Source: Candidatus Eiseniibacteriota bacterium
GTDB taxonomy: Bacteria > Eisenbacteria > RBG-16-71-46 > JABDJR01
Assembly: GCA_963728475.1 (NCBI GenBank)
Contig: CAVSKL010000003.1
Span: 393,573-457,572, forward strand
Direction of reading: 5' to 3'
Length of the DNA: 64,000 nucleotides
Shown here one piece after another: positions 9,951 through 42,463 of the stretch. Within the stretch, counting starts at the first letter, position 1, and the number at the start of each line of letters is the position of its first letter. The translations under genes and the position numbers were made by a program. The notes under the pieces are model-generated. The model was given only the letters and a program-made list of their open reading frames with translations, searched no databases and was not told the DNA's origin.

Positions 9951-11594
9951 GTGGTCGCCATGAAGCTGCGTCGTTACGGTTCCGCCTTGCACAACCGCTT
10001 CCGCCACGGGAATGGACAGGGAACCGTACCGCCGCCGGTGACCAGCCTGCGCCCGCGGCGCGTCTCGGTGGTCATTCCCGCACGCAACGAAGAACACCTG
10101 ATCCGCACCTGCATCGACTCCGTCCTCGCCCAGGACTATCCCGGCGACCTTGAGGTCATAGTCGTGGACAATGGGAGCTCCGACCGCACCGCGGAGCACG
10201 CCTACCGTTCCGGCGTGCGGGTGGTGGGCGAACCCCGCCCCGGGTACGTCGTCGCGCTCATGGCCGGGTTCCGGGAAGCCAGCGGGGACATCGTCGCGAC
10301 AACCGACGCCGACACCGTCGTCCCGGCGAACTGGATCTCGCGAATCGCCTGGGAGTACGAGAACAATCCGGATGTAGTGGCAGTCGGCGGGGCCATTCAT
10401 TTTCACGACCCGAACTGGCGGGGCTGGCTGTTCACCCGGCTGCTGCTCCCGGTGCTTACGCGTCTCGATGCGACCAGCCCTGCCGGAGCGCATCTCTGGG
10501 GAGCCAACTTCTCCGTCCGCCGCGACGTGTTTCAAAGCGCCGGCGGCTGGAGCACCGACTTCAATCTCCAGGCGGACACGGAGCTTTCGGAACGCCTTCG
10601 CCGCTACGGGCGCGTGGTGCGTGTTGAGGACCTTCGAGTCTCGTCTTCCTGTCGCCGGTGGAACCACTCGCTCCTCCACAGCATGTTCCTCTATGCATCC
10701 AATTTCGTGTGGTTCCGGATCACCCGACGGCCGCTATGGCATGAATTTCCGGAGATCCGGGAACTGCGGAACCTCATTCCCGCCGGGAGACCGCGCAGGA
10801 GATTCACCGTGCGGACCGGCGCCATTGCCGCGGTCGGCTTGATCCTGTTGGGGCTCGTCGGCTACGTGGCGTGCACCCCCTGGTCGAGCGCGTTCGGGAA
10901 GACCTATTGGCAGACCGCGGACACCGGCCGCGTCCTTGCGCTCACGTTTGACGATGGCCCCAACGGACCCTACACGAACGAGGTGCTCGACATCCTGCAG
11001 CGCGAGCAGGTACGGGCCACCTTCTTCCTGATCGGGGAGAACGTCCGTCTCTACCCGGACGTGGCCGCCCGTATCGCCAGGGAAGGCCACGCGATTGGTA
11101 ATCACTCCGACACGCACCCCTTCGCCTTCGGGCTAGATCCTGTCCCCCTCCTGCGAGCACAGCTGGACCGGGCCGAAGAGACGATCCACTCCGCGACTGG
11201 GATCTACCCGCGGCTGTTCCGCCCGCCGCAGGGGATTCGCTCCCCCTGGCTGATGGAGACGCTGAAACGGGACTCGCTGGTCACTGTGACCTGGGACGAT
11301 GCACCGAGGGATTGGTTGCATTATCCGGCGTCGCGCCTGGTGGAATCAACGGTTCGGCGCGCCCGCCCGGGAGCGATCATCCTTCTTCACGACGGGCTCA
11401 ATTTGGACCATCCTGCCGATCGGAGCGCCACCGTCTCCGCGCTGCCCAAGATCATTCATCGGCTGCGCGCGGAGGGGTATTCGTTCGTGACCATTCCGGA
11501 GCTGCTCGGGTGCGAGTCGTCGTTGGCCGACTGGCCGGTGGCGGCGCCGAAGCGCGCAGGGTCGACGGGCGGCCGCGGGGGCGGTCGCCGGTGA
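9951..11594 (+). CDS. Bifunctional family-2 glycosyltransferase / polysaccharide deacetylase (GT2 - TM - CE4 NodB-domain fusion)
   Basis: N-terminal VSVVIPARNEEHLIRTCIDSVLAQDYPGDLEVIVVDNGSSDRT...TTDADTVV (GT2 DxD). Central TM helix AIAAVGLILLGLVGYVA. C-terminal LALTFDDGPNGPYT...HSDTHP...LLHDG (NodB motifs). Confidence 0.8.
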   Translation: MVAMKLRRYGSALHNRFRHGNGQGTVPPPVTSLRPRRVSVVIPARNEEHLIRTCIDSVLAQDYPGDLEVIVVDNGSSDRTAEHAYRSGVRVVGEPRPGYVVALMAGFREASGDIVATTDADTVVPANWISRIAWEYENNPDVVAVGGAIHFHDPNWRGWLFTRLLLPVLTRLDATSPAGAHLWGANFSVRRDVFQSAGGWSTDFNLQADTELSERLRRYGRVVRVEDLRVSSSCRRWNHSLLHSMFLYASNFVWFRITRRPLWHEFPEIRELRNLIPAGRPRRRFTVRTGAIAAVGLILLGLVGYVACTPWSSAFGKTYWQTADTGRVLALTFDDGPNGPYTNEVLDILQREQVRATFFLIGENVRLYPDVAARIAREGHAIGNHSDTHPFAFGLDPVPLLRAQLDRAEETIHSATGIYPRLFRPPQGIRSPWLMETLKRDSLVTVTWDDAPRDWLHYPASRLVESTVRRARPGAIILLHDGLNLDHPADRSATVSALPKIIHRLRAEGYSFVTIPELLGCESSLADWPVAAPKRAGSTGGRGGGRR

Positions 11595-11655: not shown

Positions 11656-13044
11656 CTACTTCCAGACCTTCCCCAGGAACTCCCGGATCTCGGGGACGCC
11701 GCCCTGGAGCACGAGGTAACCGTCGTGGGGCTCCCTCGGGGTCATGTCGGAGGCGATGGGCGTGGTCATGAGGGTGCGGGCGGCGTCGGGGTCGCCGGGG
11801 TGGAGCCCCAGCGCCCAGCCGAGCTTGATGTAGGCGGTCTCGGGGAGCATGTTGGCCAGCGGCACCACCCCCAGCCCCAGGATCTCGCGTCCGGTCTCGT
11901 AGACGTGCATCTGCACGAAGCCCCACAGGGTCTGGAGCGTCATGAACACCAGCACTCCCGCCTCGCGCGCGCGCTCGAGCGCCGGGTACACCTTGCGATT
12001 CACGTGGCCGAGGCCGGTCCCGGCGATGATGATCCCCTGGTAGCCGCGCTCGATCAGGGCGTCGATCACGTCGGGCTGCATGTTGGGATAGTAATAGAGG
12101 AGGGTAACCTTCTCCTCGAACGCCGCCCGCACCGTGACCTCGCGGTCGGTGCGGCGCGGGGCGTAGTCCTGCTTGAGCGGCACGATCCGCCCGTCCTCCA
12201 CCATGGCCAGCGGAATGTCGCCGATGGTGCGGAAGGTGCTCCTATACGAACTGTGCATCTTCCGCACCCGGGTCCCCCGGTGGAGGAGGTTGTACCGGTC
12301 CGAGGTCGGGCCGAACATGCAGACCATGACCTCGGCGATCCCCCCGCGGGCCGCGGCCCAGGTGGCGTTGATGAGGTTCTGGGCCGCGTCCGAGGACGGA
12401 CGGTCCGAGGAGCGCTGGCTTCCCACCATCACGATCGGAACCGGCGGATTCTGGACCATGAAGCTCAGGGCGGCGGAGGTGTGGTGCATGGTGTCGGTGC
12501 CGTGGCCGATCACGATCCCGTCGTAGCCGTCCCGGATCGCCTCGCCGATCTTCCCGGCGAGAACGAGGTACTGCTCCGGGCCCATGTTCTCGGAGAAGAC
12601 CCCGAAGAGCTTCTCGGTCTCCAGGTTGCAGATCTCGGCCAGCTCGGGCACCGAGCCGTAGAGTTCGCCGGGGCTGAACGCGGGGATCACCGCTCCCGTC
12701 CGGTAGTCGAGCCGCGAGGCGATGGTGCCGCCGGTTCCCAGGAGCTTCACCCTGGGCTTGTCCGGGCTCACCGGGAACTCCTTCTCCGGGATCTTGTAGT
12801 GGGCCTCCTTGAAGCCCTCCACGGTGAAGGAGCGGATGGTGTCGTGGCGGAGGCCCACGTTGTATCCGGTGTTGAGCTTGAGGACCAGGTGATACGGGTC
12901 CGAGGTCTCCGAGCGCGGGAGCACCAGCCCCCGGAAATCGCCGCGGTCGGTGTGCACGGTCACGATCGACCACACCGCGACCTCGAACCTCCGCATGAGG
13001 CTCACCAGGGGCTCGCGGTACCCCTTCATCCGGTCATCGCTCAC
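11656..13044 (-). CDS. gatD: Glutamyl-tRNA(Gln) amidotransferase subunit D (archaeal-type GatD; asparaginase-like domain with an N-terminal extension)
   Basis: LLGTGGTIASRLDYRTG asparaginase motif preceded by a ~95-aa GatD-type N-terminal domain (...LKLNTGYNVGLRH...). Overlaps the stop of the upstream gatE-like gene. Confidence 0.75.
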   Translation of the reverse strand: MSDDRMKGYREPLVSLMRRFEVAVWSIVTVHTDRGDFRGLVLPRSETSDPYHLVLKLNTGYNVGLRHDTIRSFTVEGFKEAHYKIPEKEFPVSPDKPRVKLLGTGGTIASRLDYRTGAVIPAFSPGELYGSVPELAEICNLETEKLFGVFSENMGPEQYLVLAGKIGEAIRDGYDGIVIGHGTDTMHHTSAALSFMVQNPPVPIVMVGSQRSSDRPSSDAAQNLINATWAAARGGIAEVMVCMFGPTSDRYNLLHRGTRVRKMHSSYRSTFRTIGDIPLAMVEDGRIVPLKQDYAPRRTDREVTVRAAFEEKVTLLYYYPNMQPDVIDALIERGYQGIIIAGTGLGHVNRKVYPALERAREAGVLVFMTLQTLWGFVQMHVYETGREILGLGVVPLANMLPETAYIKLGWALGLHPGDPDAARTLMTTPIASDMTPREPHDGYLVLQGGVPEIREFLGKVWK

Positions 13045-15118
13045 CGGCGTCCTCCTTCCACGTCCCGGAAAGCGTTTCGGCCAGCCGCGCCTCCACCCGG
13101 AGGGGGTCCATCCGCCCCAGGAGCGCCGGCATCACCCGGCCCATCGCCCACCGGAGCACGGTTTCCCGGCTCTTTCCCGCCAGGCCCGGGGCCCGCTCCG
13201 CGGTGCCGGCCACCAGCGCCGCCAGCTCGTGCGCCTCGGTTCCGCGCGGCCGGTAGGCATCCAGGATGCGTTCGGCGGGGACCTCGGGTTCGGTGGCGAC
13301 TCGCGCCAGGACCGCGTCGAGCGCCTCCGGCCGGAACTCGCCCCGCTCCAGCGCCCGGACCGCCGGGGCCAGCCGCTCCGCCGGGGGGAGGGCGGCCGGG
13401 CGCAGGTCCCGGCGGAGCCTCGGTCCCAGCTTCGCCAGCCCCGCGGCCAGGCGACGGGCCGGCGTCCCCGCTTGCGGCGCCGCCTCGGCAAACAGGCCGG
13501 CCCAGGGCGCGTCCACCAGCCGCCGCGCCGCCGCCGGATCCAGGCCCGCCCGCACCAGCTCCGCCTCGCGCTCGAACGGCCGCCGGGGGAGCCGCTCCCG
13601 GATCTCTGTCACCCAGGCGTCGGGGATCGGAACCGGCGGGGTGTCGGTGTCGGGGTACATGCGGTCGGCCCCGGGGAGGATCCGCTCGAAACCGGTGGTG
13701 CCGTCGGGGAATGCCTGCCGGGTCTCCGCCGGCACGCCCACCAGCGCCTCCCGGGCCCGGATCAGGATCTCCCGCACCGCGGTGTCCACGTCCCGCTCCG
13801 GCCCCCACACCGCCACCACCACGTCCTCGGGGCGGGCCCGGAGCGCGGTCCGGAGCTGCTTCCACTCCGCGCTCCCCAGCCCATAGCCGGGGATGTCGGA
13901 GTGGATCAGGAACGGGCGGGCGGTGAGGCAGGCGATCACCCGCGCCCGGCCCGCGAACTCGCCGGCGAAGGTCACTCCGGGCTGGGTGCGGTGGGTGAGG
14001 AGCCCGCCGAAACCGGGGAGCCGTACCGCCGCCGCGAACTCGCCGCGGTCGAGGACGTCGCGGACCGGGGCGAAGTCGGAACGGCGGAGCACCGCGGTGG
14101 CGTCGGTCACCAGCGCCGAGGTCTCCCACGCCTTGCCCGGATCGGGAAGGGGGAGCGCGCCGGCGGTGACTCCGCGGCGGGCCAGCTCCGCCCGGATCCT
14201 CAGGAGGTTGAGCTGGCGGAAGCCCTCGATGTGCACCAGGCGGGGAAGGTGGCGGTGGTTGTCGACTCCCTTGATCTCGGTCCGGCGGCCGCCGGCCACC
14301 GACACGTTCACGTCCTGGCGGGCCGCGCCGGGGCCTCGGCGCACCCTGTCCGAGGCCCGGGTGATCCGGGCAATGAGGCGCGCCCCCGCCTGCAGCTCCA
14401 GCGGGGTCAGGAGTTCGGGCTCGGTCACCACCTCGGTGAGGGGCATGCCCAGCCGGTCGGTGCGGAAGACGACGCGGTGCCCCACGTCCGAGACCTCGCG
14501 GCAGGCGTCCTCCTCCAGGGAGAGTTGGCGGATCGTGAGTTCCCGGTCCACTCCCAGGGCGGGTTCGCGGAAGGGGATGGTGCCGGCCAGGCCCATCATC
14601 GCGGTGCGCTGGAAGCCGGTGGGGATGGAGCCGTCCAGGTATTGCTTGCGCATCACGTGGAGTTCGGAGACCAGGTTCAGGTTGAAGAGCATGGAGATCT
14701 CGAGGGCGACCCGGACCGCTTCCTCGTCGATCACGAAGGGAGGGGTGTCGTCGATCTCGTAGGTGCAGACGGTACCCCGCTCCAGGAGGTAGACGATCTC
14801 CTTGTGGGTCTTGAACTCCATGAGGGCGGTGCCGTCGTACTCGCCCAGCTCACTCAAGGTGGGGCGCATGTGCCGCAGCACCTCGGCGTCGTAGTGGTCC
14901 ACGTAGACCCCGGCCGGGCAACGGCAGAAGAGCTTGGTGCGGGTGCGGAGCTGCTGATGCACCTCCAGCCCCGACATGAACCCGATCGCCCGGTAGTCGC
15001 CGGCGGACAGGGTTCCGAAGTCGCGGTCGGGGAAGTCCAGCGCCGGCTCCCGGCAGGGGTTCACGTCGCTCGGCGGCTCGAGGCCGGGCGCGGGATCTTG
15101 GGGCTCGACGGCGCTCAT
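13034..15118 (-). CDS. gatE: Glutamyl-tRNA(Gln) amidotransferase subunit E (archaeal-type GatE, GatB/E family with AspRS-like insertion)
   Basis: N-terminal GFMSGLEVHQQLRTRTKLFCRCP (GatE signature). The ~690-aa length exceeds GatB. Start placed at MSAVEPQD..., since the upstream 222 aa of the 916-aa track ORF belong to a different gene and frame. Confidence 0.75.
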   Translation of the reverse strand: MSAVEPQDPAPGLEPPSDVNPCREPALDFPDRDFGTLSAGDYRAIGFMSGLEVHQQLRTRTKLFCRCPAGVYVDHYDAEVLRHMRPTLSELGEYDGTALMEFKTHKEIVYLLERGTVCTYEIDDTPPFVIDEEAVRVALEISMLFNLNLVSELHVMRKQYLDGSIPTGFQRTAMMGLAGTIPFREPALGVDRELTIRQLSLEEDACREVSDVGHRVVFRTDRLGMPLTEVVTEPELLTPLELQAGARLIARITRASDRVRRGPGAARQDVNVSVAGGRRTEIKGVDNHRHLPRLVHIEGFRQLNLLRIRAELARRGVTAGALPLPDPGKAWETSALVTDATAVLRRSDFAPVRDVLDRGEFAAAVRLPGFGGLLTHRTQPGVTFAGEFAGRARVIACLTARPFLIHSDIPGYGLGSAEWKQLRTALRARPEDVVVAVWGPERDVDTAVREILIRAREALVGVPAETRQAFPDGTTGFERILPGADRMYPDTDTPPVPIPDAWVTEIRERLPRRPFEREAELVRAGLDPAAARRLVDAPWAGLFAEAAPQAGTPARRLAAGLAKLGPRLRRDLRPAALPPAERLAPAVRALERGEFRPEALDAVLARVATEPEVPAERILDAYRPRGTEAHELAALVAGTAERAPGLAGKSRETVLRWAMGRVMPALLGRMDPLRVEARLAETLSGTWKEDAGER

Positions 15119-15191
15119 GAACGGGTTCCTCCAGGCGAGACGGGCATGAACTATAGGGCCTGGGGGGCGGGGCCAGAAGGGGAAAAGGGGA

Positions 15192-15784
15192 TCAGTCGTC
15201 GTCTTCCAGCTCGATCGTGGGAAGGGGGGCGAGGACGTGGGAGTAAGCCAACCGGTGACCGCGGGACGGGTCGCGGGCGCCGTGAATGATCCCGATGACC
15301 CGGGTGATGAGGCGGTTGACCTCCTCCAGGTCCTCCGTCGAGAGCCAACCGGTGGCGCGTCCCCCCACAGGTTCCGGCGGGGCCCGTTGGGGAGAACGTC
15401 CACCGCCGCGAAGCCGGTCTCGAAATCCCGCTGGGCCATACGGATCGCTCCCCGGAGCACCCGGACGGTGGCCTGGCGCTTGGCCGGATCGTCGTGGTCG
15501 TAGAGGAGCCGCAGGCGGGGGTGAACGACCTGGAAGAGCGCCTCCTCGCGGCGGGCGGTCCGGCGGGTCCCCCCCTCGACCAGGAGGCCCACCTCGACGA
15601 GCTTTCTCACGTGGTAGTAGAGCGAGTCGGGGGTGCGCCCCACGATCCGGGCCAACTCCCGCATCGACAGGGGAGGGGCCCCGAGGAGGACGTCCACGAT
15701 CTCCTGCCGGACCTGCGAGACCAGGGCCTCGATCTGTTCGAGCCGCTTGATGGTGTAGAAGCCGTCATCTTTCTGGTGGCTCAT
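15192..15784 (-). CDS. Winged-helix (ArsR/MarR-like) transcriptional regulator. Its reading frame appears shifted at a C6 run (~15361-15367), so the C-terminal part is read in another frame ending ...LEEVNRLITRVIGIIHGARDPSRGHRLAYSHVLAPLPTIELEDDD*. As given, the N-terminal frame runs unbroken into gatE.
   Basis: N-terminal 125 aa (…EIVDVLLGAPPLSMRELARIVGRTPDSLYYHVRKLVEVGLLVEGG…) is a clean wHTH. After ~15370 the same frame turns Ser/Pro/Thr-rich, while a second frame gives a plausible helical C-terminus with a TGA at ~15192. Confidence 0.45.
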
Positions 15785-35680: not shown

Positions 35681-37177
35681 GTGCGCCAAAAGATTGGGGG
35701 AACCGTGAAACGAACACAGGGGAACTCCACTTCGGTGCCCGTCGCGGTCCAGCCCATCGTGAAGATCCCGACCGGCATCCGGGGGCTCGACGCCATTCTT
35801 GACGGAGGGCTCCCCCGTGGACGGATGACCGTGCTGGCCGGGGGACCGGGAAGCGGCAAGACCGTACTTGCCCTGGAGTTCCTCTATCGCGGGGCCCTGG
35901 CCGGGGAGCCGGGGATCTTCATCACCTTCGAGGAAGCGGCCGAGGATCTCCGTGCCAACGCCGCCGCGATGGGCATGGACGTGGCGCCCCTCGAAGCTTC
36001 CGGAATGCTCCGGATCATGCATGCCAAGGTCCCCCACCAGGCGATCCATGCCGGTGAGTTCGACCTCCAGGGCCTGCTGGCGATCCTGGACGGACAATTC
36101 CGGTCCGTGGAGTCCGGGCGGATCGTCCTGGATGCCGTCGACGTTCTCATGCGGATCTTCGGCGATCCGAGGCGGGAACGGGTGGAACTGCATGTTCTGA
36201 ACGACTGGCTGCGCGCACGCGGAGCGACCTCGGTGGTGACCGCCAAGGCCGGGCGGGAGGGAAGGCAGATCTATCCCTTTCTCGACTTCATGTCCGACTG
36301 CGTTCTCCTCATCGATCAGCGCATGGAAGGGCAGGTCCGGACGCGCCGGTTGAGCGTGATGAAATACCGGGGATCGGGCTTCCTCGAGAACGAGCACCCG
36401 TTCGCCATCTCCCCCCGGGGGGTGGTCCTGCTGCCGGTCGCCTCGACGGCGCTCTCCGATCGAAGGATCGACCGGCGCATCTCGAGCGGCCACGAGCAGC
36501 TGGACGTGCTCCTCGGGGGAGGGTATCTCCAGGGATCCTGCATTCTGCTGGCGGGTCCGAGCGGCGCCGGAAAGACGACTCTCGCCTGCACCTTTGTCGA
36601 GCGCGCTTGCCGGAGGGGTGAGCGGGTCCTTTATCTGTGCCTGGACGAGGCCCATCAATCGCTCCTGGTGGAAATGAAGAACGAGGGAATCGATCTGGAG
36701 CCGGCGGCCCACGCCGGAACGATCGCGTTCCAGGACATCATGCCCGAGACGGACGGCGTGGAGCAGCATCTGCTGAAGATTCTCGATGCGATCGAGGAAT
36801 TCGAACCGCACCACGTCATCGTCGATTCCATCTCGGCGGTCCAGCGGATGGGTACCCGGTCGGCGGCCTTCGACTTTCTGCTTCGCCTTCTCGCCGAATC
36901 CAAGCGGCGGGGGATCACCTGCTTCTTCACCAATCAGATTCTGGACCTGGAGCGGGTCACCGGGGACGGCGGAGAGGGGGTTTCTTCCCTGGTGGACACC
37001 ATGGTGGGCCTCCAGTACGAGGACGACGGCCGGAGGTTGCGGCGGCGGCTGCTGGTGATCAAGTCGCGCGGCACCGGCCATTCCATGCTCTATCACCGGT
37101 TTGAAATCACCGGTCACGGCATCGAACTGGCCGACGACGATCGGTCTCGGAAAGGCGAGGAGGACGGTGATCGGTGA
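35681..37177 (+). CDS. kaiC: KaiC-family double RecA-like ATPase/autokinase
   Basis: Two RecA-like domains, with Walker A GGPGSGKT and AGPSGAGKT. The KaiC-typical N-terminus is IPTGIRGLDAILDGGLPRG. Alternative GTG start at ~35705 after a GGGGGA RBS. Confidence 0.85.
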   Translation: MRQKIGGTVKRTQGNSTSVPVAVQPIVKIPTGIRGLDAILDGGLPRGRMTVLAGGPGSGKTVLALEFLYRGALAGEPGIFITFEEAAEDLRANAAAMGMDVAPLEASGMLRIMHAKVPHQAIHAGEFDLQGLLAILDGQFRSVESGRIVLDAVDVLMRIFGDPRRERVELHVLNDWLRARGATSVVTAKAGREGRQIYPFLDFMSDCVLLIDQRMEGQVRTRRLSVMKYRGSGFLENEHPFAISPRGVVLLPVASTALSDRRIDRRISSGHEQLDVLLGGGYLQGSCILLAGPSGAGKTTLACTFVERACRRGERVLYLCLDEAHQSLLVEMKNEGIDLEPAAHAGTIAFQDIMPETDGVEQHLLKILDAIEEFEPHHVIVDSISAVQRMGTRSAAFDFLLRLLAESKRRGITCFFTNQILDLERVTGDGGEGVSSLVDTMVGLQYEDDGRRLRRRLLVIKSRGTGHSMLYHRFEITGHGIELADDDRSRKGEEDGDR

Positions 37178-37491
37178 TCGGTGACCAGGAACCGGCCTCG
37201 CCAGGTCCCGTAAAGGAGAGAGCCGTCGACCGGCTGGTCCTGTTCGTGGCCGGGGACGAGTTCAACAGCCGCCTGGCCAAACGGAACTTGGCGGAGATCT
37301 GCAGCGGAAGGCGGTGCGAGGACTTCGCGGTCGAGATCGTGGACGTCCTTACGGACTCCGCGCTTGCGATCGAACACAACATCCTGGTCACCCCGACCCT
37401 GCTGGTGCTGACCGGGGGCCGGGCGACGATGGTGATCGGAAACCTGAGCGACCGGCAGGAAGTCCGCTCGGCGTTGCGATGGAAAGAGTGA
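37174..37491 (+). CDS. kaiB: KaiB-like thioredoxin-fold protein
   Basis: 105 aa, ...LVLFVAGDEFNSRLAKRNLAEICSG...EIVDVLTDSALAIEHNILVTPTLLVL... GTG start overlaps the kaiC stop (GTGA). Confidence 0.8.
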   Translation: MIGDQEPASPGPVKERAVDRLVLFVAGDEFNSRLAKRNLAEICSGRRCEDFAVEIVDVLTDSALAIEHNILVTPTLLVLTGGRATMVIGNLSDRQEVRSALRWKE

Positions 37492-37492
37492 G

Positions 37493-39310
37493 ATGGGTGA
37501 AGACCTGAACCGGCTTCGTGAGCGGCTTGCCCGGGCCGAGGAAGTCCTGAGGGCGCTACGGGCGGACGAGATCGATGCCGTGATCGGAAATCGGGGCGTC
37601 GCGCTCCTCCGCCTGGGTGCCTTGGAACGGGCGCTGCGGGAGAGCGAGGAACGCCTCCACCTGGCGCTCGACGCGGCCGATCTCGCCACTTTCGAGATCG
37701 ATCTCGGGACGGGCAAGATCTCGAGCGCGACCGGGATCTGGAAGATGCTGGAACCCGGACCGGACCGGACGCCGGCGACGTTTGACGAATGGATCGGATT
37801 GATGCTTCCGGAGGACCGGGACCGGGTGAGAAAGGCTATCGAGCGTTCGTACGCCACCGGCGAGAAATACGAGATCGAGTACCGCATCCGCTGCGCGAAC
37901 GGAGAGGTCCGGTGGCGGCGCGGCAAGGGAGGCCCGGCTTCCGCGGACGGGAAGTCTCCCGACCGGGTAACCGGGGTCGTGGTGGACGTCACCGCGAAGA
38001 AACAGGCCGAGGCGGATCTGCGCAGGAGCCGCGACGAGCTGGAAAAGAGGGTGATGGAACGCACCGCCGAGCTCTCGGAGGTGGTGGCGGCCCTGAGGGA
38101 AGAGGCGGAACGCCGGATTGTCGCCGAGGAGGAGCTGCGCGAGCGCTCGGAGCGCTTGAGCGCCCTCTCCGCGTCGCTGACCCTCGCCGAGCAGCGGGAA
38201 AGGGAGAGACTGGCCCGGGTGCTCCACGACGGACTGCAACAGTACCTGGCCGCGGCCCGATATCACCTCGCCTCCCTGAAACACTCCACCGACCCCGTCG
38301 CTCTCGAGACCGAGAAGGAGGTGGATGGCCTCCTCTCCGAAGCCATCGAGACCGGACGCCTTCTGACCGCGGAGCTGAGCCCGCCGGTCCTCATCGAGGG
38401 AGGACTCGGGAGCGCGATGGAGTGGCTGGCGGCCTGGATGGAGGACAAGCACGGCCTCGCCGTGGATCTGGAGATCGAAGGCCGCCTCGACGGCGTCCGC
38501 AGGGACGTCGCCGTCCTCCTCTTCGAGAGCGTCCGCGAGCTTCTCTTCAACGTGGTGAAGCACGCCGGGGTCAAGACGGCCCACGTCCGGGCCTCTTCGC
38601 AGGGACCACAGCTCAGGATCGAGGTTTCGGACCGGGGGGTGGGCTACGATCCCCGGAAACTCATGGCCGGTAACCGGGGCTCGACAAGGTTCGGACTTCT
38701 CAGCATCGCGGAGCGCCTCGCCCTGCTCGGCGGGGAGATGGAGGTCGAGGGCTCGCCGGGCGAAGGGACGCGATTCACCCTGACCGTCCCTCTCGCCAAG
38801 TCGACCGAGGCGCCGGCAGCCAAAGCGGCCGGCCGGGGGCAGGAGCCGGCGCCCGCCGACGACACCGAAGCGGAATGCGACGACGCCCGGATCCGCCTGG
38901 TGCTGGTGGACGACCACACGGTGATGCGCCAGGGATTGGCGACGCTGTTGCGGGACGAACGGGACATGGTGGTGGTCGGAGAGGCCGCCGACGGCGAAAC
39001 CGCGGTCCGGGTGGTCTGCGAGGTTCACCCGGACGTCGTGCTCATGGATGTGTCCATGCCGGGCATGAACGGAGTCGAGGCGACCCGGCTCGTCCATGAG
39101 CGGTGCCCGGCGGCGCGGGTGATCGGTCTGTCGATGTTCGAGGATCCGGAGCACATGGCCTCGATGATCGCGGCCGGAGCCTGGGCCTACCTCGGCAAGA
39201 ACGGGCCGGCCGATAAGTTGCTGGACCACATCCGGAGGGCCGGCCGCACCATCCCCCGGAACCGCTCCGCCATCCGGCGCCCGCACCCCCCCAAAGAGCT
39301 TCGCTTCTGA
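37493..39310 (+). CDS. Hybrid sensor histidine kinase (PAS - HisKA_3 - HATPase_c - REC)
   Basis: PAS domain with ...EIEYRIRCANGEVRW.... NarL-type H-box LHDGLQQYLAAARYHL. G1/G2 boxes. C-terminal receiver IRLVLVDDH...VVLMDVSMPGMNG. Confidence 0.85.
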   Translation: MGEDLNRLRERLARAEEVLRALRADEIDAVIGNRGVALLRLGALERALRESEERLHLALDAADLATFEIDLGTGKISSATGIWKMLEPGPDRTPATFDEWIGLMLPEDRDRVRKAIERSYATGEKYEIEYRIRCANGEVRWRRGKGGPASADGKSPDRVTGVVVDVTAKKQAEADLRRSRDELEKRVMERTAELSEVVAALREEAERRIVAEEELRERSERLSALSASLTLAEQRERERLARVLHDGLQQYLAAARYHLASLKHSTDPVALETEKEVDGLLSEAIETGRLLTAELSPPVLIEGGLGSAMEWLAAWMEDKHGLAVDLEIEGRLDGVRRDVAVLLFESVRELLFNVVKHAGVKTAHVRASSQGPQLRIEVSDRGVGYDPRKLMAGNRGSTRFGLLSIAERLALLGGEMEVEGSPGEGTRFTLTVPLAKSTEAPAAKAAGRGQEPAPADDTEAECDDARIRLVLVDDHTVMRQGLATLLRDERDMVVVGEAADGETAVRVVCEVHPDVVLMDVSMPGMNGVEATRLVHERCPAARVIGLSMFEDPEHMASMIAAGAWAYLGKNGPADKLLDHIRRAGRTIPRNRSAIRRPHPPKELRF

Positions 39311-39451
39311 CCCCACTTTCAGCAACCGGGAGCGGGGGCCGGACGCGGTATACTTTCCGGACCTGAGCTGCATTGAAGGGCTTGGGCCGGTCCACCGGGG
39401 CTGAGCCCAATGCGATCGACGACCGGGGCCCCGGTCCAGCCCGAGGACACG

Positions 39452-42400
39452 ATGACACGCCGATTCCTCCCGGCCGCTGCCTTGATGCTCGCCGCCCTCG
39501 CCTTCGCCCCCGCCCGGGCCGGCGAGACCGCCAATCCGCCCATCTACATCGCCTTCCTCTGGCACATGCACCAGCCCATCTACTGGCCGTATGAATCGGT
39601 GGTCGCGACCGACGCCAACCAGCGCTACGGCTACTCGGTCACCGACATCCACAATCAGCGGCTGGGGCCGTACACCTCGTGGCCCAAGGACGCGGTCTCG
39701 GCCGGGGTCGCCGCCGGTATGCCGCACTTCGGCGCCCAGGTGAGCTTCTCGGGCTCGCTCATGGAAAACCTGAACTCCCTGGAAGCCGCCGGGAACGGCA
39801 ACTTCCAGAACTGGAAGTCGTCCTGGGATTGGATCAAGACCCAGACCACCTCGCTCGGCAATCCCCGGCTCGACATGGTGGGCTTCGGTTACCACCACCC
39901 GCTCATGGGGCTCCTGGGCACCCTCGACATCGAGCGGCAGATCGAGGCCCACCGGAGCATGATGGCCTCGAACTTCAGCGGGTCGTACTCGAAGGGCATC
40001 TTCCCGCCCGAGGACGCCTTCTCGGCCCGGATGATCCCGGCGCTGGCCGCCGAGGGGCTCCGGTGGGTGCTGGTGGACAACCTCCACTTCGACCGCGCCG
40101 CGGCGGGCTACCCGTACAACACCGGCGGGAACGTCGTGGAGCCCAACCGAGCCGACCAGCGGAATCCGGATCCGGGCGACTGGGTCCAGCTCACCGATCT
40201 CTGGGCGCCCACCAGGATCTCCGGCGGTTGGGGCCACCGGCCGCACGTTGCCGAATACGTGGATCCGGCCTCCGGCCAGGTGTCGCGGATCGTCGCCGTT
40301 CCCGCCGACCGCTACATGGGGAACGAGGACGCCCGCGGGGGGTTCGGGGCGCTCCAGTACGACGACGTGATGAGCCAGCTCGAGCCCTACAACACCGACC
40401 CCGCGCATCCGCTCCTGGTGGTGCTCCACCACGACGGGGACAACTACGGGGGCGGGACCGACAGCTACTACCACTCCAACTTCGACGCCTTCGTGAGCTG
40501 GCTCCAGGCCAGCCCCTCGCGGTTCGTGTGCACCACCGTCCAGGACTACCTGGACCGGTTCCCCCCGGACACGAGCGACGTCATCCACGTGGAGGACGGG
40601 AGCTGGAGCGGCGCCGACAACGGCGACCCCGAATTCAAGAAGTGGCTGGGCGACCCCGCCGCCGACGGCTACAGCCCCGACCGGAACAGCTGGGCGGTGG
40701 TGACCGCGGCCCGGAACATCGTGTCCACCGCGGACGAGGTGGCGCCGGGGTCGCCGGAGACCGCGCTGGCCTGGCACTACCTGCTGAACGCCGAGGCCAG
40801 CGATTACTGGTACTGGGACGGGTCTCAGGGGGGCGTCTGGGATTCGCATCCGACGCGCGCGTCCAATCTGGCGGTGCCGCACGCGTTGAACGCGATCGGG
40901 AGCGGCGCCGACCTCACCGGGCCCACCATCTTTCTCCCCCAGCGCGAGCCCTACAACCCGGGCGGCACCGAGTGGGGGATCGCCCAGCCCCGCGACTTCC
41001 AGGTCTGGACGTTCGCGTTCGACCTTGACGGGTTGTCGTCGGTCAGCCTGAAGATCCGCGGGGACCGGGACGGGGCGCTTCCGGCCGGGTCGTCGGACAA
41101 CGATACCTATCTTGGGGGCCCCGCGGTGACCGCGTGGACCTCGATCCCCATGACCGCGAGCGACATGGCGTCGCGGACCGATCCATTGCCGCTCTATCGC
41201 GCTTCGCAGTACGCGGCCACCGTCACCGGTGTCACCGACTCGCTCCTGGATTACTACGTGGAGGCGGTGGACGGGCACGGGAACGTGTCGAGTTCGCCCA
41301 TCCGCCATGTGTGGGTGGGAACCGGCACCAGCGGCGGGGGAGGGGGGAGCGCCGGGGTGAGCTGGACGCCGCCGTCGCCGGCGGCCGAGGACTCGGTCAC
41401 CCTCACCGTGGCCGGCGCCGGGAAGGGCGGCAAGCTCCACTGGGGGGTGAACGGGTGGGGCGCTCCGGCGACGGGCTACCAGCCGGCGGGGACGGTGCCG
41501 TATAGCGGTGGTTCGGCAGTGGAGACGCCGATGGCACTCTCCGGGGGCGACCTCGCGCTCACCCTGGGGCCGTTCGACGATCCCGCCCAGCCGGTGCGAA
41601 CGCTCGACTTCGTCATCCACTACGACGACGACACCTGGGACAACAACGGGGGACAGGACTACCACGTGACGGTCACCGGCGCCGCCGCGGCGAAGACGTT
41701 CACCGTGGACGGCGCGCTCGACGCGTCGGCGGTCAAGGTGGCGTCGGCGGGCGGGGTGGACCTGTACCTGGACTACAACGGGAGCGATCTCTACGTGGCC
41801 ACTCAGGCTGCGGGAGGGAGCCAGAGCGACGCCTTCGTGTTCGTGACCGGCCCGCCCCCCGGGGCGATGGCCGCTTCGCCGTGGGCCAAGGCCGGCCAGG
41901 TGGCGGGGTGGTCCTTGTTCCTGGGGAACGAGAGCGGGAACAACTGGTGCGGCTGGACCGGCCAGGCCGGAACGGTGGCGCAGGCCGCCGGAACGTACCT
42001 AGAGGGGACGGTGAACCTGTCCTCGGAGTTTGGCTCGGTGCCGCCGGTGGTCTACGTGGCGGTCGGTCGCTACCAGACCGCCGACGGGGGGGCGCTGGTT
42101 GCGCAGGCCCCCGCGGGGAACGGAAACGGCGACCTCGAGGCCTCGGAGTACTACGCCTACGACCTCAGCGCCACTGGGGTGCCGGATGGAGCGGTCCTGG
42201 ACCCGGGTCCGCTTCTGCGGAGCTATCCCAACCCGTTTCGCGGAGCGGCCACGGTGTCGTTCCGGCTTTCGACGCGGGGCGCGGTGCGGTTGTCGATGTA
42301 CGACCTGAGCGGGCGGCTGGTGCGCGTCTTGGCCGCGCGTGAGTTCGACGGGGGGGAGCACCGGGTCGCCGTCGACGGTGCGGGCCTGGCCGGCGGGATC

Positions 42401-42463
42401 TACTTCGTGGAGCTTCGCGCGCCCGGCGTCCGCGCGTCGCAGCGGCTGGTGCTGTTGCGGTAG
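39452..42463 (+). CDS. Secreted glycoside hydrolase family 57 enzyme (alpha-amylase / alpha-glucan-acting) with middle beta-sandwich/CBM-like domains and a T9SS (Por) C-terminal sorting domain
   Basis: GH57 signature IAFLWHMHQPIYW. Signal peptide MTRRFLPAAALMLAALAFAPARA. C-terminal ~80 aa (LLRSYPNPFRGAATVSFRL...GGIYFVELRAPG...) match the T9SS CTD consensus. GAGGA RBS. Confidence 0.8.
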   Translation: MTRRFLPAAALMLAALAFAPARAGETANPPIYIAFLWHMHQPIYWPYESVVATDANQRYGYSVTDIHNQRLGPYTSWPKDAVSAGVAAGMPHFGAQVSFSGSLMENLNSLEAAGNGNFQNWKSSWDWIKTQTTSLGNPRLDMVGFGYHHPLMGLLGTLDIERQIEAHRSMMASNFSGSYSKGIFPPEDAFSARMIPALAAEGLRWVLVDNLHFDRAAAGYPYNTGGNVVEPNRADQRNPDPGDWVQLTDLWAPTRISGGWGHRPHVAEYVDPASGQVSRIVAVPADRYMGNEDARGGFGALQYDDVMSQLEPYNTDPAHPLLVVLHHDGDNYGGGTDSYYHSNFDAFVSWLQASPSRFVCTTVQDYLDRFPPDTSDVIHVEDGSWSGADNGDPEFKKWLGDPAADGYSPDRNSWAVVTAARNIVSTADEVAPGSPETALAWHYLLNAEASDYWYWDGSQGGVWDSHPTRASNLAVPHALNAIGSGADLTGPTIFLPQREPYNPGGTEWGIAQPRDFQVWTFAFDLDGLSSVSLKIRGDRDGALPAGSSDNDTYLGGPAVTAWTSIPMTASDMASRTDPLPLYRASQYAATVTGVTDSLLDYYVEAVDGHGNVSSSPIRHVWVGTGTSGGGGGSAGVSWTPPSPAAEDSVTLTVAGAGKGGKLHWGVNGWGAPATGYQPAGTVPYSGGSAVETPMALSGGDLALTLGPFDDPAQPVRTLDFVIHYDDDTWDNNGGQDYHVTVTGAAAAKTFTVDGALDASAVKVASAGGVDLYLDYNGSDLYVATQAAGGSQSDAFVFVTGPPPGAMAASPWAKAGQVAGWSLFLGNESGNNWCGWTGQAGTVAQAAGTYLEGTVNLSSEFGSVPPVVYVAVGRYQTADGGALVAQAPAGNGNGDLEASEYYAYDLSATGVPDGAVLDPGPLLRSYPNPFRGAATVSFRLSTRGAVRLSMYDLSGRLVRVLAAREFDGGEHRVAVDGAGLAGGIYFVELRAPGVRASQRLVLLR

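Follow-up and report, generated by a model that had tools for sequence, protein, structure and literature searches.

The tRNA-dependent amidotransferase GatDE, as described from the archaea Methanothermobacter thermautotrophicus (2D6F) and Pyrococcus abyssi (1ZQ1), consists of two subunits encoded by adjacent, coupled genes, and in reviews published up to 2022 it has been called exclusively archaeal (PMC8762117, PMC9499178, PMC2811023). The bacterial GatCAB enzyme performs the same overall reaction, and its GatB subunit is a paralogue of GatE with which it has the cradle and a YqeY-like tail in common. The glutaminase of GatCAB is the amidase GatA together with GatC, whereas that of GatDE is the asparaginase-type GatD, and GatB, unlike GatE, lacks the insertion domain and possesses a 3-10 turn and a Lys-rich tail motif. 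Here, we describe a gatE-gatD pair (gatED) encoded on a 64-kb stretch of DNA from a Candidatus Eiseniibacteriota bacterium (contig CAVSKL010000003.1, positions 393,573 to 457,572; here termed the window, with coordinates counted from its first letter). On sequence grounds, the pair probably encodes a functional GatDE-type amidotransferase for Glu-tRNA(Gln) in a bacterium, belonging to a clade that most likely stems from an ancient Asgard-related transfer; both the substrate and the relation of the enzyme to GatCAB are matters that we infer. The two genes and their junction are arranged as follows.

13034 to 15118, minus strand: gatE, 694 amino acids (aa), the kinase/amidotransferase subunit, with its ATG at 15118 and TGA stop at 13036-13034

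11656 to 13044, minus strand: gatD, 462 aa, the glutaminase subunit, with its GTG at 13044 and TAG stop at 11658-11656

13034 to 13057, minus strand: gatE/gatD junction, an 11-nucleotide (nt) overlap between the gatE stop and the gatD start, read from the sequence

An earlier reading of this DNA (the original prediction) had recognized two adjacent, overlapping genes in the order E-D, specifying a GatE-like protein of about 690 aa and a GatD-like protein, a description borne out by the lengths and the 11-nt overlap given above. The motifs which it quoted are also present, GTGGTIAS at residue 103 of GatD and GLEVHQQL and CRCP at residues 50 and 65 of GatE, as is the GatD-specific N-terminal domain. 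The Shine-Dalgarno sequence of gatD, AAGGAGG (13057-13051), lies inside the 3' end of gatE, 6 nt before the GTG, and translation of the two genes is coupled, with gatE preceding gatD.

The comparison against GatD, GatE, and GatB hidden Markov models (HMMs) that had been proposed with the original prediction was performed on whole proteins. GatD scored 480 bits against TIGR02153 (cut-off 324) and 476 bits against NF003217 (cut-off 310), while GatE scored 484 bits against NF003107 (cut-off 456) and 418 bits against TIGR00134 (cut-off 320). GatD also passed the type I asparaginase model TIGR00519 (363 bits, cut-off 260.5), a score below that obtained with the GatD model, and it is set apart from free-standing asparaginases by its GatD_N domain and its coupled gatE partner. 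The best GatB model gave GatE 129 bits against a cut-off of 338, all GatB models scoring at most 129 bits against cut-offs of at least 315, and the length of GatE (694 aa, compared to approximately 480 aa for GatB) and its insertion domain place it outside GatB. Pfam assignments for GatD were PF18195 GatD_N (residues 24 to 70), PF00710 Asparaginase (98 to 288), and PF17763 Asparaginase_C (312 to 426), and for GatE they were GatB_N and a borderline GAD (23.0 bits, the gathering score being 23.4).

GatD aligned essentially from end to end with P. abyssi 1zq1_A (E value of 1e-115) and with 2d6f_A (3e-107), and GatE likewise aligned with P. abyssi 1zq1_C (1e-92, over residues 41 to 674) and with 2d6f_C (8e-86), the former alignment passing through the AspRS-like insertion, which is without a counterpart in GatB, and the tail region. 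GatD residues T107, T183, D184, and K262 fall on T101, T177, D178, and K254 of M. thermautotrophicus 2d6f_A, which we take to be the numbers of the GatD catalytic residues. The chemistry of GatD is known to involve a Thr nucleophile plus a Thr-Lys-Asp triad (PMC2330236), and these Thr and Thr-Asp-Lys residues are conserved in both the window copy and the consensus of the bacterial clade. In GatE, residues H54, E202, and E229 correspond to the M. thermautotrophicus Mg ligands His15, Glu157, and Glu184, mutation of which kills the enzyme (PMC2330236), and the corresponding positions are consensus (at least 80%) across about 60 bacterial GatE sequences. The positively charged GatE loop V(R/K)RGxG, which has been placed at the first tRNA base pair (PMC2811023), is similarly retained, both by the window copy and across the bacterial clade. 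The alternative named with the original prediction, namely, an asparaginase next to an ordinary GatB, is thus contradicted by the equivalog scores, the full-length structure alignments, and the catalytic residues. As judged from sequence, the window pair is a true GatD plus GatE in which every mappable catalytic residue is intact.

The window pair, therefore, has the same two subunits as the archaeal enzymes, the same domains (GatD_N and asparaginase in GatD; cradle, AspRS-like insertion, helical domain, and YqeY-like tail in GatE), and the same catalytic Thr, Thr-Asp-Lys, and His/Glu/Glu Mg ligands. It differs from them in its bacterial host and in sequence, being approximately 45 to 48% (GatD) and 33 to 35% (GatE) identical to 2D6F and 1ZQ1. 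The gene order in P. abyssi is D then E, whereas that of the window is E then D, and the C-terminal extension of window GatD is about 25 aa longer than that of the solved P. abyssi GatD. GatE here carries an N-terminal extension of approximately 40 aa with the motif NPxxDPPLDFPD, and in a high-GC subclade an 11-aa insert. The YqeY-like tail of GatE aligns with that of the archaeal enzymes, but its GXXAXGX motif is without consensus in the bacterial clade, the window reading RETVLRW. This motif (GMGAMGP in M. thermautotrophicus), a reported conserved feature outside the HMM definition of GatE, is reported to help GatDE reject Asp-tRNA(Asn) (PMC2811023). The host tRNA(Gln), furthermore, presumably begins with U1-A72.

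The host of the pair is a diderm bacterium. Flanking genes on both sides are bacterial and encode AcrB, an OEP/TolC-type factor, a HisKA kinase with an OmpR-type regulator, and TonB_C, and further neighbors encode ABC transport components, an M13 peptidase, a GT2/polysaccharide deacetylase, and a GH57 protein with a type IX secretion system (T9SS) Por_Secre_tail, in agreement with the bacterial context originally described. The GC content of the window is 0.70, and GC at third codon positions (GC3) is 0.95 for gatD and 0.93 for gatE, within the range of the neighboring genes (0.81 to 0.97); this comparison had been suggested at the outset, together with the possibility of an archaeal/bacterial chimera. 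The agreement in GC3 and the presence of the pair on 80 contigs of bacterial metagenome-assembled genomes (MAGs), five of them closed chromosomes (CP070722.1, OY970178.1, OZ245006.1, OY820579.1, and OY760907.1), speak against such a chimera. Searches of the window for Rfam families and tRNAs gave no match.

The distribution of the pair was assessed in three collections. A search of 5.8 billion protein clusters returned at least 8,000 candidates, the best 120 of which were considered; these were 78 to 100% identical to window GatD, and the named ones among them, already annotated as GatD, derive from MAGs of Gemmatimonadota, Acidobacteria, Eisenbacteria, and Deltaproteobacteria/Myxococcota. Scanning a single genome for each GTDB species gave at least 600 candidate stretches, of which 592 passed a lenient tblastn, a figure that represents an upper-end candidate count rather than a confirmed number of species. 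The best 80 of these stretches, which were examined, are all from bacterial MAGs, with GatD 66 to 87% identical to that of the window. Their submitter labels comprise Eisenbacteria, Krumholzibacteriota, Gemmatimonadota, Acidobacteriota/Aminicenantes, Myxococcota, Planctomycetota/Phycisphaerae, Bacteroidota, Ignavibacteria, Calditrichia, Zixibacteria, Fibrobacterota, Zhuqueibacterota, and Aegiribacteria, about a dozen phyla overall. The closest genome locus among these 80, from a Candidatus Eisenbacteria MAG (L001), encodes GatD and GatE that are 87% and 72% identical to those of the window, with which it also has a few other genes in common. A metagenome scan added 80 loci, resulting in a total of 160 related loci on independent bacterial contigs, including closed chromosomes of 3.6 to 8.1 Mb and contigs larger than 1 Mb.

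The arrangement of the pair is well conserved, with gatE located directly 5' of gatD in about 70 of the 72 genome loci with upstream room and a distance from gatE stop to gatD start that falls between about -58 and +32 nt in 54 of 59 related loci. The dN/dS ratio (nonsynonymous to synonymous substitution rates) relative to four relatives was 0.16 to 0.27 for gatD and 0.26 to 0.40 for gatE, values which are probably overestimates given the extreme GC3 and which indicate purifying selection on both genes. The bacterial GatD tree broadly tracks phylum labels, the exceptions being Planctomycetota and Krumholzibacteria, each of which occurs in two places. GatD was found neither on PLSDB plasmids, which yielded only asparaginases at about 30% identity, nor in IMG/VR. 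The gatED pair is, accordingly, an old, ameliorated, and selected bacterial gene pair and not a private or recent acquisition. The claim that this bacterium had acquired an archaeal module consequently stands as regards archaeal ancestry, but not as regards an individual acquisition, as the pair belongs to a large, old, and ameliorated bacterial clade (GatD 66 to 87% identical).

Several members of the clade depart from the common arrangement. In two loci (L060 and L067), gatD is present without gatE directly upstream despite 1.4 to 2.9 kb of room, and in three others (L035, L046, and L073) an extra gene or a gap separates gatE from gatD. A natural GatE-GatD fusion of 943 aa (P0126), encoded on a 12.8-kb Logan contig, also belongs to the bacterial clade and comprises about 480 aa of GatE (the cradle and the insertion, but neither the helical nor the YqeY tail domain) fused to a complete GatD. 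Two GatD paralogues (P0127 and P0164) branch with the bacterial clade. The first of these, the one whose sequence was read, has its catalytic residues replaced (TGGT by AGGA and HGTDT by TGVAT) and looks from its sequence like an inactive subunit.

Concerning the origin of the bacterial clade, the nearest nonbacterial GatD sequences in a library of 50%-identity representatives are 43 to 48% identical, the one that is named being from Sigynarchaeota, and a profile of this nearest group retrieves GatD proteins labeled Loki-, Hod-, Heimdall-, Hermod-, Odin-, Thor-, Jord-, Frey-, and Promethearchaeota. A neighbor-joining (NJ) tree of GatD was calculated from 313 core columns of 84 taxa, with two type I asparaginases as outgroups and 200 bootstraps. 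The bacterial clade was recovered in 200 of 200 bootstraps, as was the split between bacteria plus Asgard on one side and the other archaeal representatives plus the outgroup on the other, while archaeal GatD was monophyletic in none (0/200). The bacteria-plus-Asgard split was retained in 89 to 100 of 100 bootstraps when the taxa were subsampled differently, when distances were gamma or Kimura corrected, and when the C-terminal tail was left out. At 16 GatD columns, the bacterial consensus equals the Asgard consensus in a state that is rare among 115 other archaeal representatives, compared to two columns that show the opposite pattern; in 4 of these 16 columns, the outgroup agrees with the other archaea. 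The tail of GatD, located as follows, adds a further feature.

11656 to 11735, minus strand: GatD C-terminal extension REPHDGYLVLQGGVPEIREFLGKVWK, common to Asgard GatD

After residue 415, this tail measures 46 to 48 aa in bacteria, 35 to 59 aa in Asgard-labeled proteins, and a median of 31 aa in the other archaea (n = 115). It contains the motif REP..GYL..QG..PE...F in bacteria and Asgard, and the core REP..GYL..QG occurs in nearly all Asgard-labeled proteins and in none of the 115 other archaeal representatives. The likeness extends to gene order, which is E then D in five of five Asgard contigs (L081 to L085; Sigyn-, Heimdall-, Jord-, Thor-, and Odinarchaeia), and to the GatE motifs TPPF, YLDGS(I/V)P, and YPDTD, which are common to bacteria and Asgard and in which two euryarchaeal references differ. 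These Asgard enzymes are, therefore, the closest by GatD trees, signature columns, and extension, yet their GatD is only 43 to 48% and their GatE 31 to 36% identical, and the bacterial clade sits on a long stem. Their contigs also encode actin, Roadblock/LAMTOR, TFIIB, or L7Ae, that is, archaeal or eukaryote-like neighbors, and the flanks contain no gene for glutaminyl-tRNA synthetase (GlnRS), unlike some of the bacterial loci described below.

The ultimate origin of the pair is most likely archaeal. With moderate confidence, the GatD sequences suggest that the bacterial clade goes back to one ancient transfer out of an Asgard-related archaeon, whose direction in time and between domains, like its age, we infer. 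Following this transfer, the pair most likely spread mainly vertically, with some horizontal movement, through the FCB group, Gemmatimonadota, Planctomycetota, Myxococcota, and Acidobacteriota. As side observations on the Asgard-type group, two GatD proteins of 604 to 606 aa (P0298 and P0322) are fused to an Archease domain (PF01951), and another GatD (P0166) has a long additional C-terminal region. Archease is otherwise linked to tRNA ligase and methyltransferase function.

The genes surrounding gatED offer a functional indication. A genuine GlnRS gene is located beside gatED in 9 of the 160 bacterial loci, in three different arrangements: glnS lies 3' of gatD, either directly and on the same strand (L010, L011, L017, L089, and L105) or 2.5 kb past it (L109); a GlnRS-YqeY fusion is encoded 5' of gatE (L036, 33 nt before the GatE match, and L019, at about 0.8 kb); or glnS is convergent and immediately past gatD (L102). 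These neighbors score 660 to 755 bits against TIGR00440 (cut-off 426) and 934 to 1,131 bits against the GlnRS/YqeY model NF011291 (cut-off 681). The GlnRS of L011 matches the Pseudomonas aeruginosa and Escherichia coli GlnRS structures with E values of 1e-218 and 2e-204, and it keeps E. coli residues R30, Y211, C229, and Q255, which we take from the GlnRS engineering literature to be residues of the glutamine pocket. A bacterial-type glutamyl-tRNA synthetase (GluRS) gene, gltX, is present within 3 to 6 kb in L010 and L011, the former also having a tRNA-Ser gene near gatED. Among 103 immediate neighbors, the Pfam family seen most often, six times, is the catalytic domain of class I Glu/Gln synthetases, the others being generic and represented at most four times each. 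None of the neighboring genes is conserved throughout the clade; the HTH, M13 peptidase, and GT2/deacetylase genes that the window contains do not adjoin gatED in the other loci, and there is no glnS within the 64-kb window. In 2.0 Mb of flanking sequence, no gatB-like genes, YqeY domains, or tRNA-Gln were detected beyond GatE itself and the GlnRS fusions, an outcome that is expected by chance and carries no information on the genomes as a whole.

Because GlnRS is the only function-specific recurrent neighbor, the GatDE pair is functionally linked to the charging of tRNA with glutamine/glutamate, in keeping with the canonical role of GatDE. The presence of GlnRS beside gatED in nine loci also indicates that GatDE is not the sole route to Gln-tRNA(Gln) in those genomes. 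A similar combination of a direct GlnRS with a tRNA-dependent amidotransferase is described for Deinococcus, Thermus, and Bdellovibrio, which possess GlnRS, asparaginyl-tRNA synthetase (AsnRS), and GatCAB. Deinococcus GlnRS is fused to YqeY, and the gatED-linked GlnRS proteins belong to the same NF011291 family, two copies being YqeY fused; the amidotransferase here, in contrast to those genera, is GatDE rather than GatCAB and is encoded directly beside glnS.

In archaeal GatDE, the glutaminase of GatD is turned on by Glu-tRNA(Gln) bound to GatE, and GatE recognizes the A1-U72 pair and the D-loop of tRNA(Gln). By analogy with the archaeal enzyme, the proposed reaction would be initiated by GluRS, which would charge tRNA(Gln) with glutamate. 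GatE would then bind the resulting Glu-tRNA(Gln) and phosphorylate the side chain carboxyl with ATP and Mg2+, while GatD, as an asparaginase-type glutaminase, would free ammonia from Gln or Asn. This ammonia is presumed to reach the GatE site, where the activated glutamate would be converted to glutamine, yielding Gln-tRNA(Gln). In some of these bacteria, GatDE encoded beside GlnRS would run alongside the direct route and not instead of it.

A number of observations weigh against this interpretation. Bacterial tRNA(Gln) normally begins with U1-A72 and archaeal GatDE reads A1-U72, and therefore tRNA recognition must differ or be relaxed. A Glu-specific amidotransferase also looks redundant where GlnRS is present, and the known bacteria with GlnRS which keep GatCAB are reported to retain it in relation to asparagine (PMC4206432). 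With respect to ancestry, all GatD trees are distance based, and the bacteria-plus-Asgard split was recovered in only 35 of 100 bootstraps when raw p-distances were used. The identity of bacterial GatE to Asgard GatE (31 to 36%) is, moreover, no higher than that to euryarchaeal GatE (33 to 35%). A GatE profile search (P. abyssi plus M. thermautotrophicus) yielded only Thermococcales and Methanothermobacter, such that the GatE tree comprises three groups and is unrooted; having neither an outgroup nor TACK sequences, GatE neither confirms nor contradicts the Asgard link. Of the two phylogenies advocated in the original prediction, that of GatD thus groups the bacterial proteins with Asgard, whereas that of GatE is uninformative on placement.

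The substrate may alternatively have changed or broadened to Asp-tRNA(Asn), alone or together with Glu-tRNA(Gln), amounting to a GatCAB-like formation of asparagine in bacteria with GlnRS. We consider such a shift rather unlikely. It would account for the canonical GlnRS beside gatED in 9 of the 160 loci, where Gln-tRNA(Gln) can be made directly, and for the loss in the bacterial clade of the motif implicated in rejection of Asp-tRNA(Asn), and there is a precedent, again from PMC4206432, in bacteria with both GlnRS and AsnRS that still keep GatCAB. The linked synthetase, nevertheless, is GlnRS and twice GluRS, and neither aspartyl-tRNA synthetase (AspRS) nor AsnRS occurs among the 25 commonest families (at least two members each) of the 103 neighbors. 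The AspRS-like insertion of GatE, modeled in the literature to clash with nondiscriminating AspRS (ND-AspRS), is retained, and archaeal GatDE is described as strictly a Glu amidotransferase. Equally to be weighed against a functional GatDE is the view that the genes encode a type I asparaginase and a divergent GatB, or a relic pair which no longer amidates tRNA. GatD does pass the type I asparaginase model, GatE has the GatB_N fold in common with GatB, and the clade includes a catalytically dead GatD paralogue (P0127, with AGGA for TGGT and TGVAT for HGTDT), but GatD and GatE equivalog scores far exceed those of the asparaginase and GatB models, GatD_N is present, the insertion and tail of GatE align to 1zq1_C, and the intact catalytic residues of the window, purifying selection, and tight translational coupling leave this view with very little probability.

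Two further explanations concern how the pair came to reside in bacteria. GatDE may have been present in LUCA, the last universal common ancestor, as proposed by Sheppard and Soll (quoted in PMC9499178), and have been inherited vertically by these bacteria without any archaeal transfer, a scenario in keeping with the long stem of the bacterial clade and its broad tracking of phyla. With asparaginase outgroups, however, archaea were monophyletic in 0 of 200 bootstraps and bacteria join Asgard, the derived signature states and the C-terminal extension are common to Asgard only, and the pair occurs in only a subset of bacterial phyla among the best 80 of at least 600 candidate loci; vertical descent from LUCA is accordingly regarded as improbable. 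The description of GatDE as exclusively archaeal in reviews would, on the other hand, favor an assembly or binning artefact in which an archaeal fragment was joined to, or binned with, bacterial DNA. This reading is refuted, its likelihood being negligible, by the bacterial genes on both flanks within the 64-kb window, by GC and GC3 values of gatED that resemble those of the neighbors, by the occurrence of the pair on 160 independent bacterial contigs including closed chromosomes, and by the nine loci beside GlnRS, mostly abutting on the same strand, given that according to the literature all archaea are without GlnRS. A functional bacterial GatDE of Asgard-related descent, acting on Glu-tRNA(Gln), consequently remains the favored interpretation. 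Beyond it, we tentatively advance a wider proposal, which is possible but the less probable part of our account, that GatDE, far from being an archaeal signature, is a second, widespread bacterial tRNA-dependent amidotransferase which came from an Asgard-related donor, was retuned to bacterial tRNAs (U1-A72 and an altered tail motif), performs part or all of the work of GatCAB (Gln, Asn, or both) in many lineages, and in some genomes forms a gatE-gatD-glnS operon, one not described before, coupling the direct and indirect routes to Gln-tRNA(Gln).

Two other features lie immediately upstream of the gatED coding region.

15116 to 15132, minus strand: gatE ribosome-binding site, GGAGGA followed by an 8-nt spacer and the ATG

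15192 to 15784, minus strand: upstream HTH_20/ArsR-like gene (Pfam HTH_20), frameshifted at a G6 run (15366-15361)

The upstream gatE start (ATG at 15118) is backed by the N-terminal motif NP(R)xDPPLDFPD, which is kept in close GatE relatives. A mechanically called open reading frame of 916 aa extends to 15784, and its first 130 aa or so represent the separate HTH gene and not GatE; it engulfs gatE because of the G6 frameshift in that gene. Within the HTH gene, the GC3 frame switches, consistent with a 1-nt frameshift at G6, and when the frames are joined across the shift the stop is found at 15194-15192, so that an error of long-read assembly seems likelier than a pseudogene. The sole promoter-like match of the region (15829-15800) is upstream of the HTH gene, and HTH, gatE, and gatD may therefore be cotranscribed here. 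The HTH gene never adjoins gatED in the other loci examined and is not a conserved part of the unit.

Elsewhere in the window, a 547-aa protein consisting of a GT2 glycosyltransferase fused to a polysaccharide deacetylase is encoded at 9951 to 11594 (plus strand), convergent with gatD at a distance of 61 nt. A KaiC-like double-domain ATPase (35681 to 37177), a small open reading frame (37171 to 37491), and a PAS-HisKA_3-receiver hybrid kinase (37493 to 39310) together occupy positions 35681 to 39310 (plus strand) and resemble a KaiC-based signaling module outside cyanobacteria. The 1,017-aa GH57-family protein encoded at 39410 to 42463 (plus strand) combines an Ig-like domain of the alpha-glucan-dikinase type with a C-terminal T9SS sorting domain and, from these domains, would be a secreted starch- or glycogen-active enzyme.

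The enzyme of the window adds a bacterial representative to a known family, with clade-specific features and an unexpected GlnRS link. No paper on bacterial GatDE was found in the full-text literature, a search outside whose scope most subscription journals fall, such that an earlier description is possible. Public annotation pipelines already name these bacterial proteins GatD and GatE, and the gap is, therefore, one in the literature and in experiments, not in databases. GatDE serves in the literature as a marker of archaeal versus bacterial translation and in arguments concerning LUCA, and its occurrence in the bacterial window and at 160 related loci on bacterial contigs, in a clade beside the Asgard enzymes, means that the "archaea-only" statement needs correcting. 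The clade would be a tangible instance of translation machinery passing between domains, out of an Asgard-related lineage, and it raises the question of how an enzyme tuned to archaeal tRNA(Gln) with A1-U72 serves bacterial tRNAs. That gatED is repeatedly linked to glnS is surprising, given that the two routes, direct and indirect, are mostly regarded as alternatives, and it offers a way into why cells keep both.

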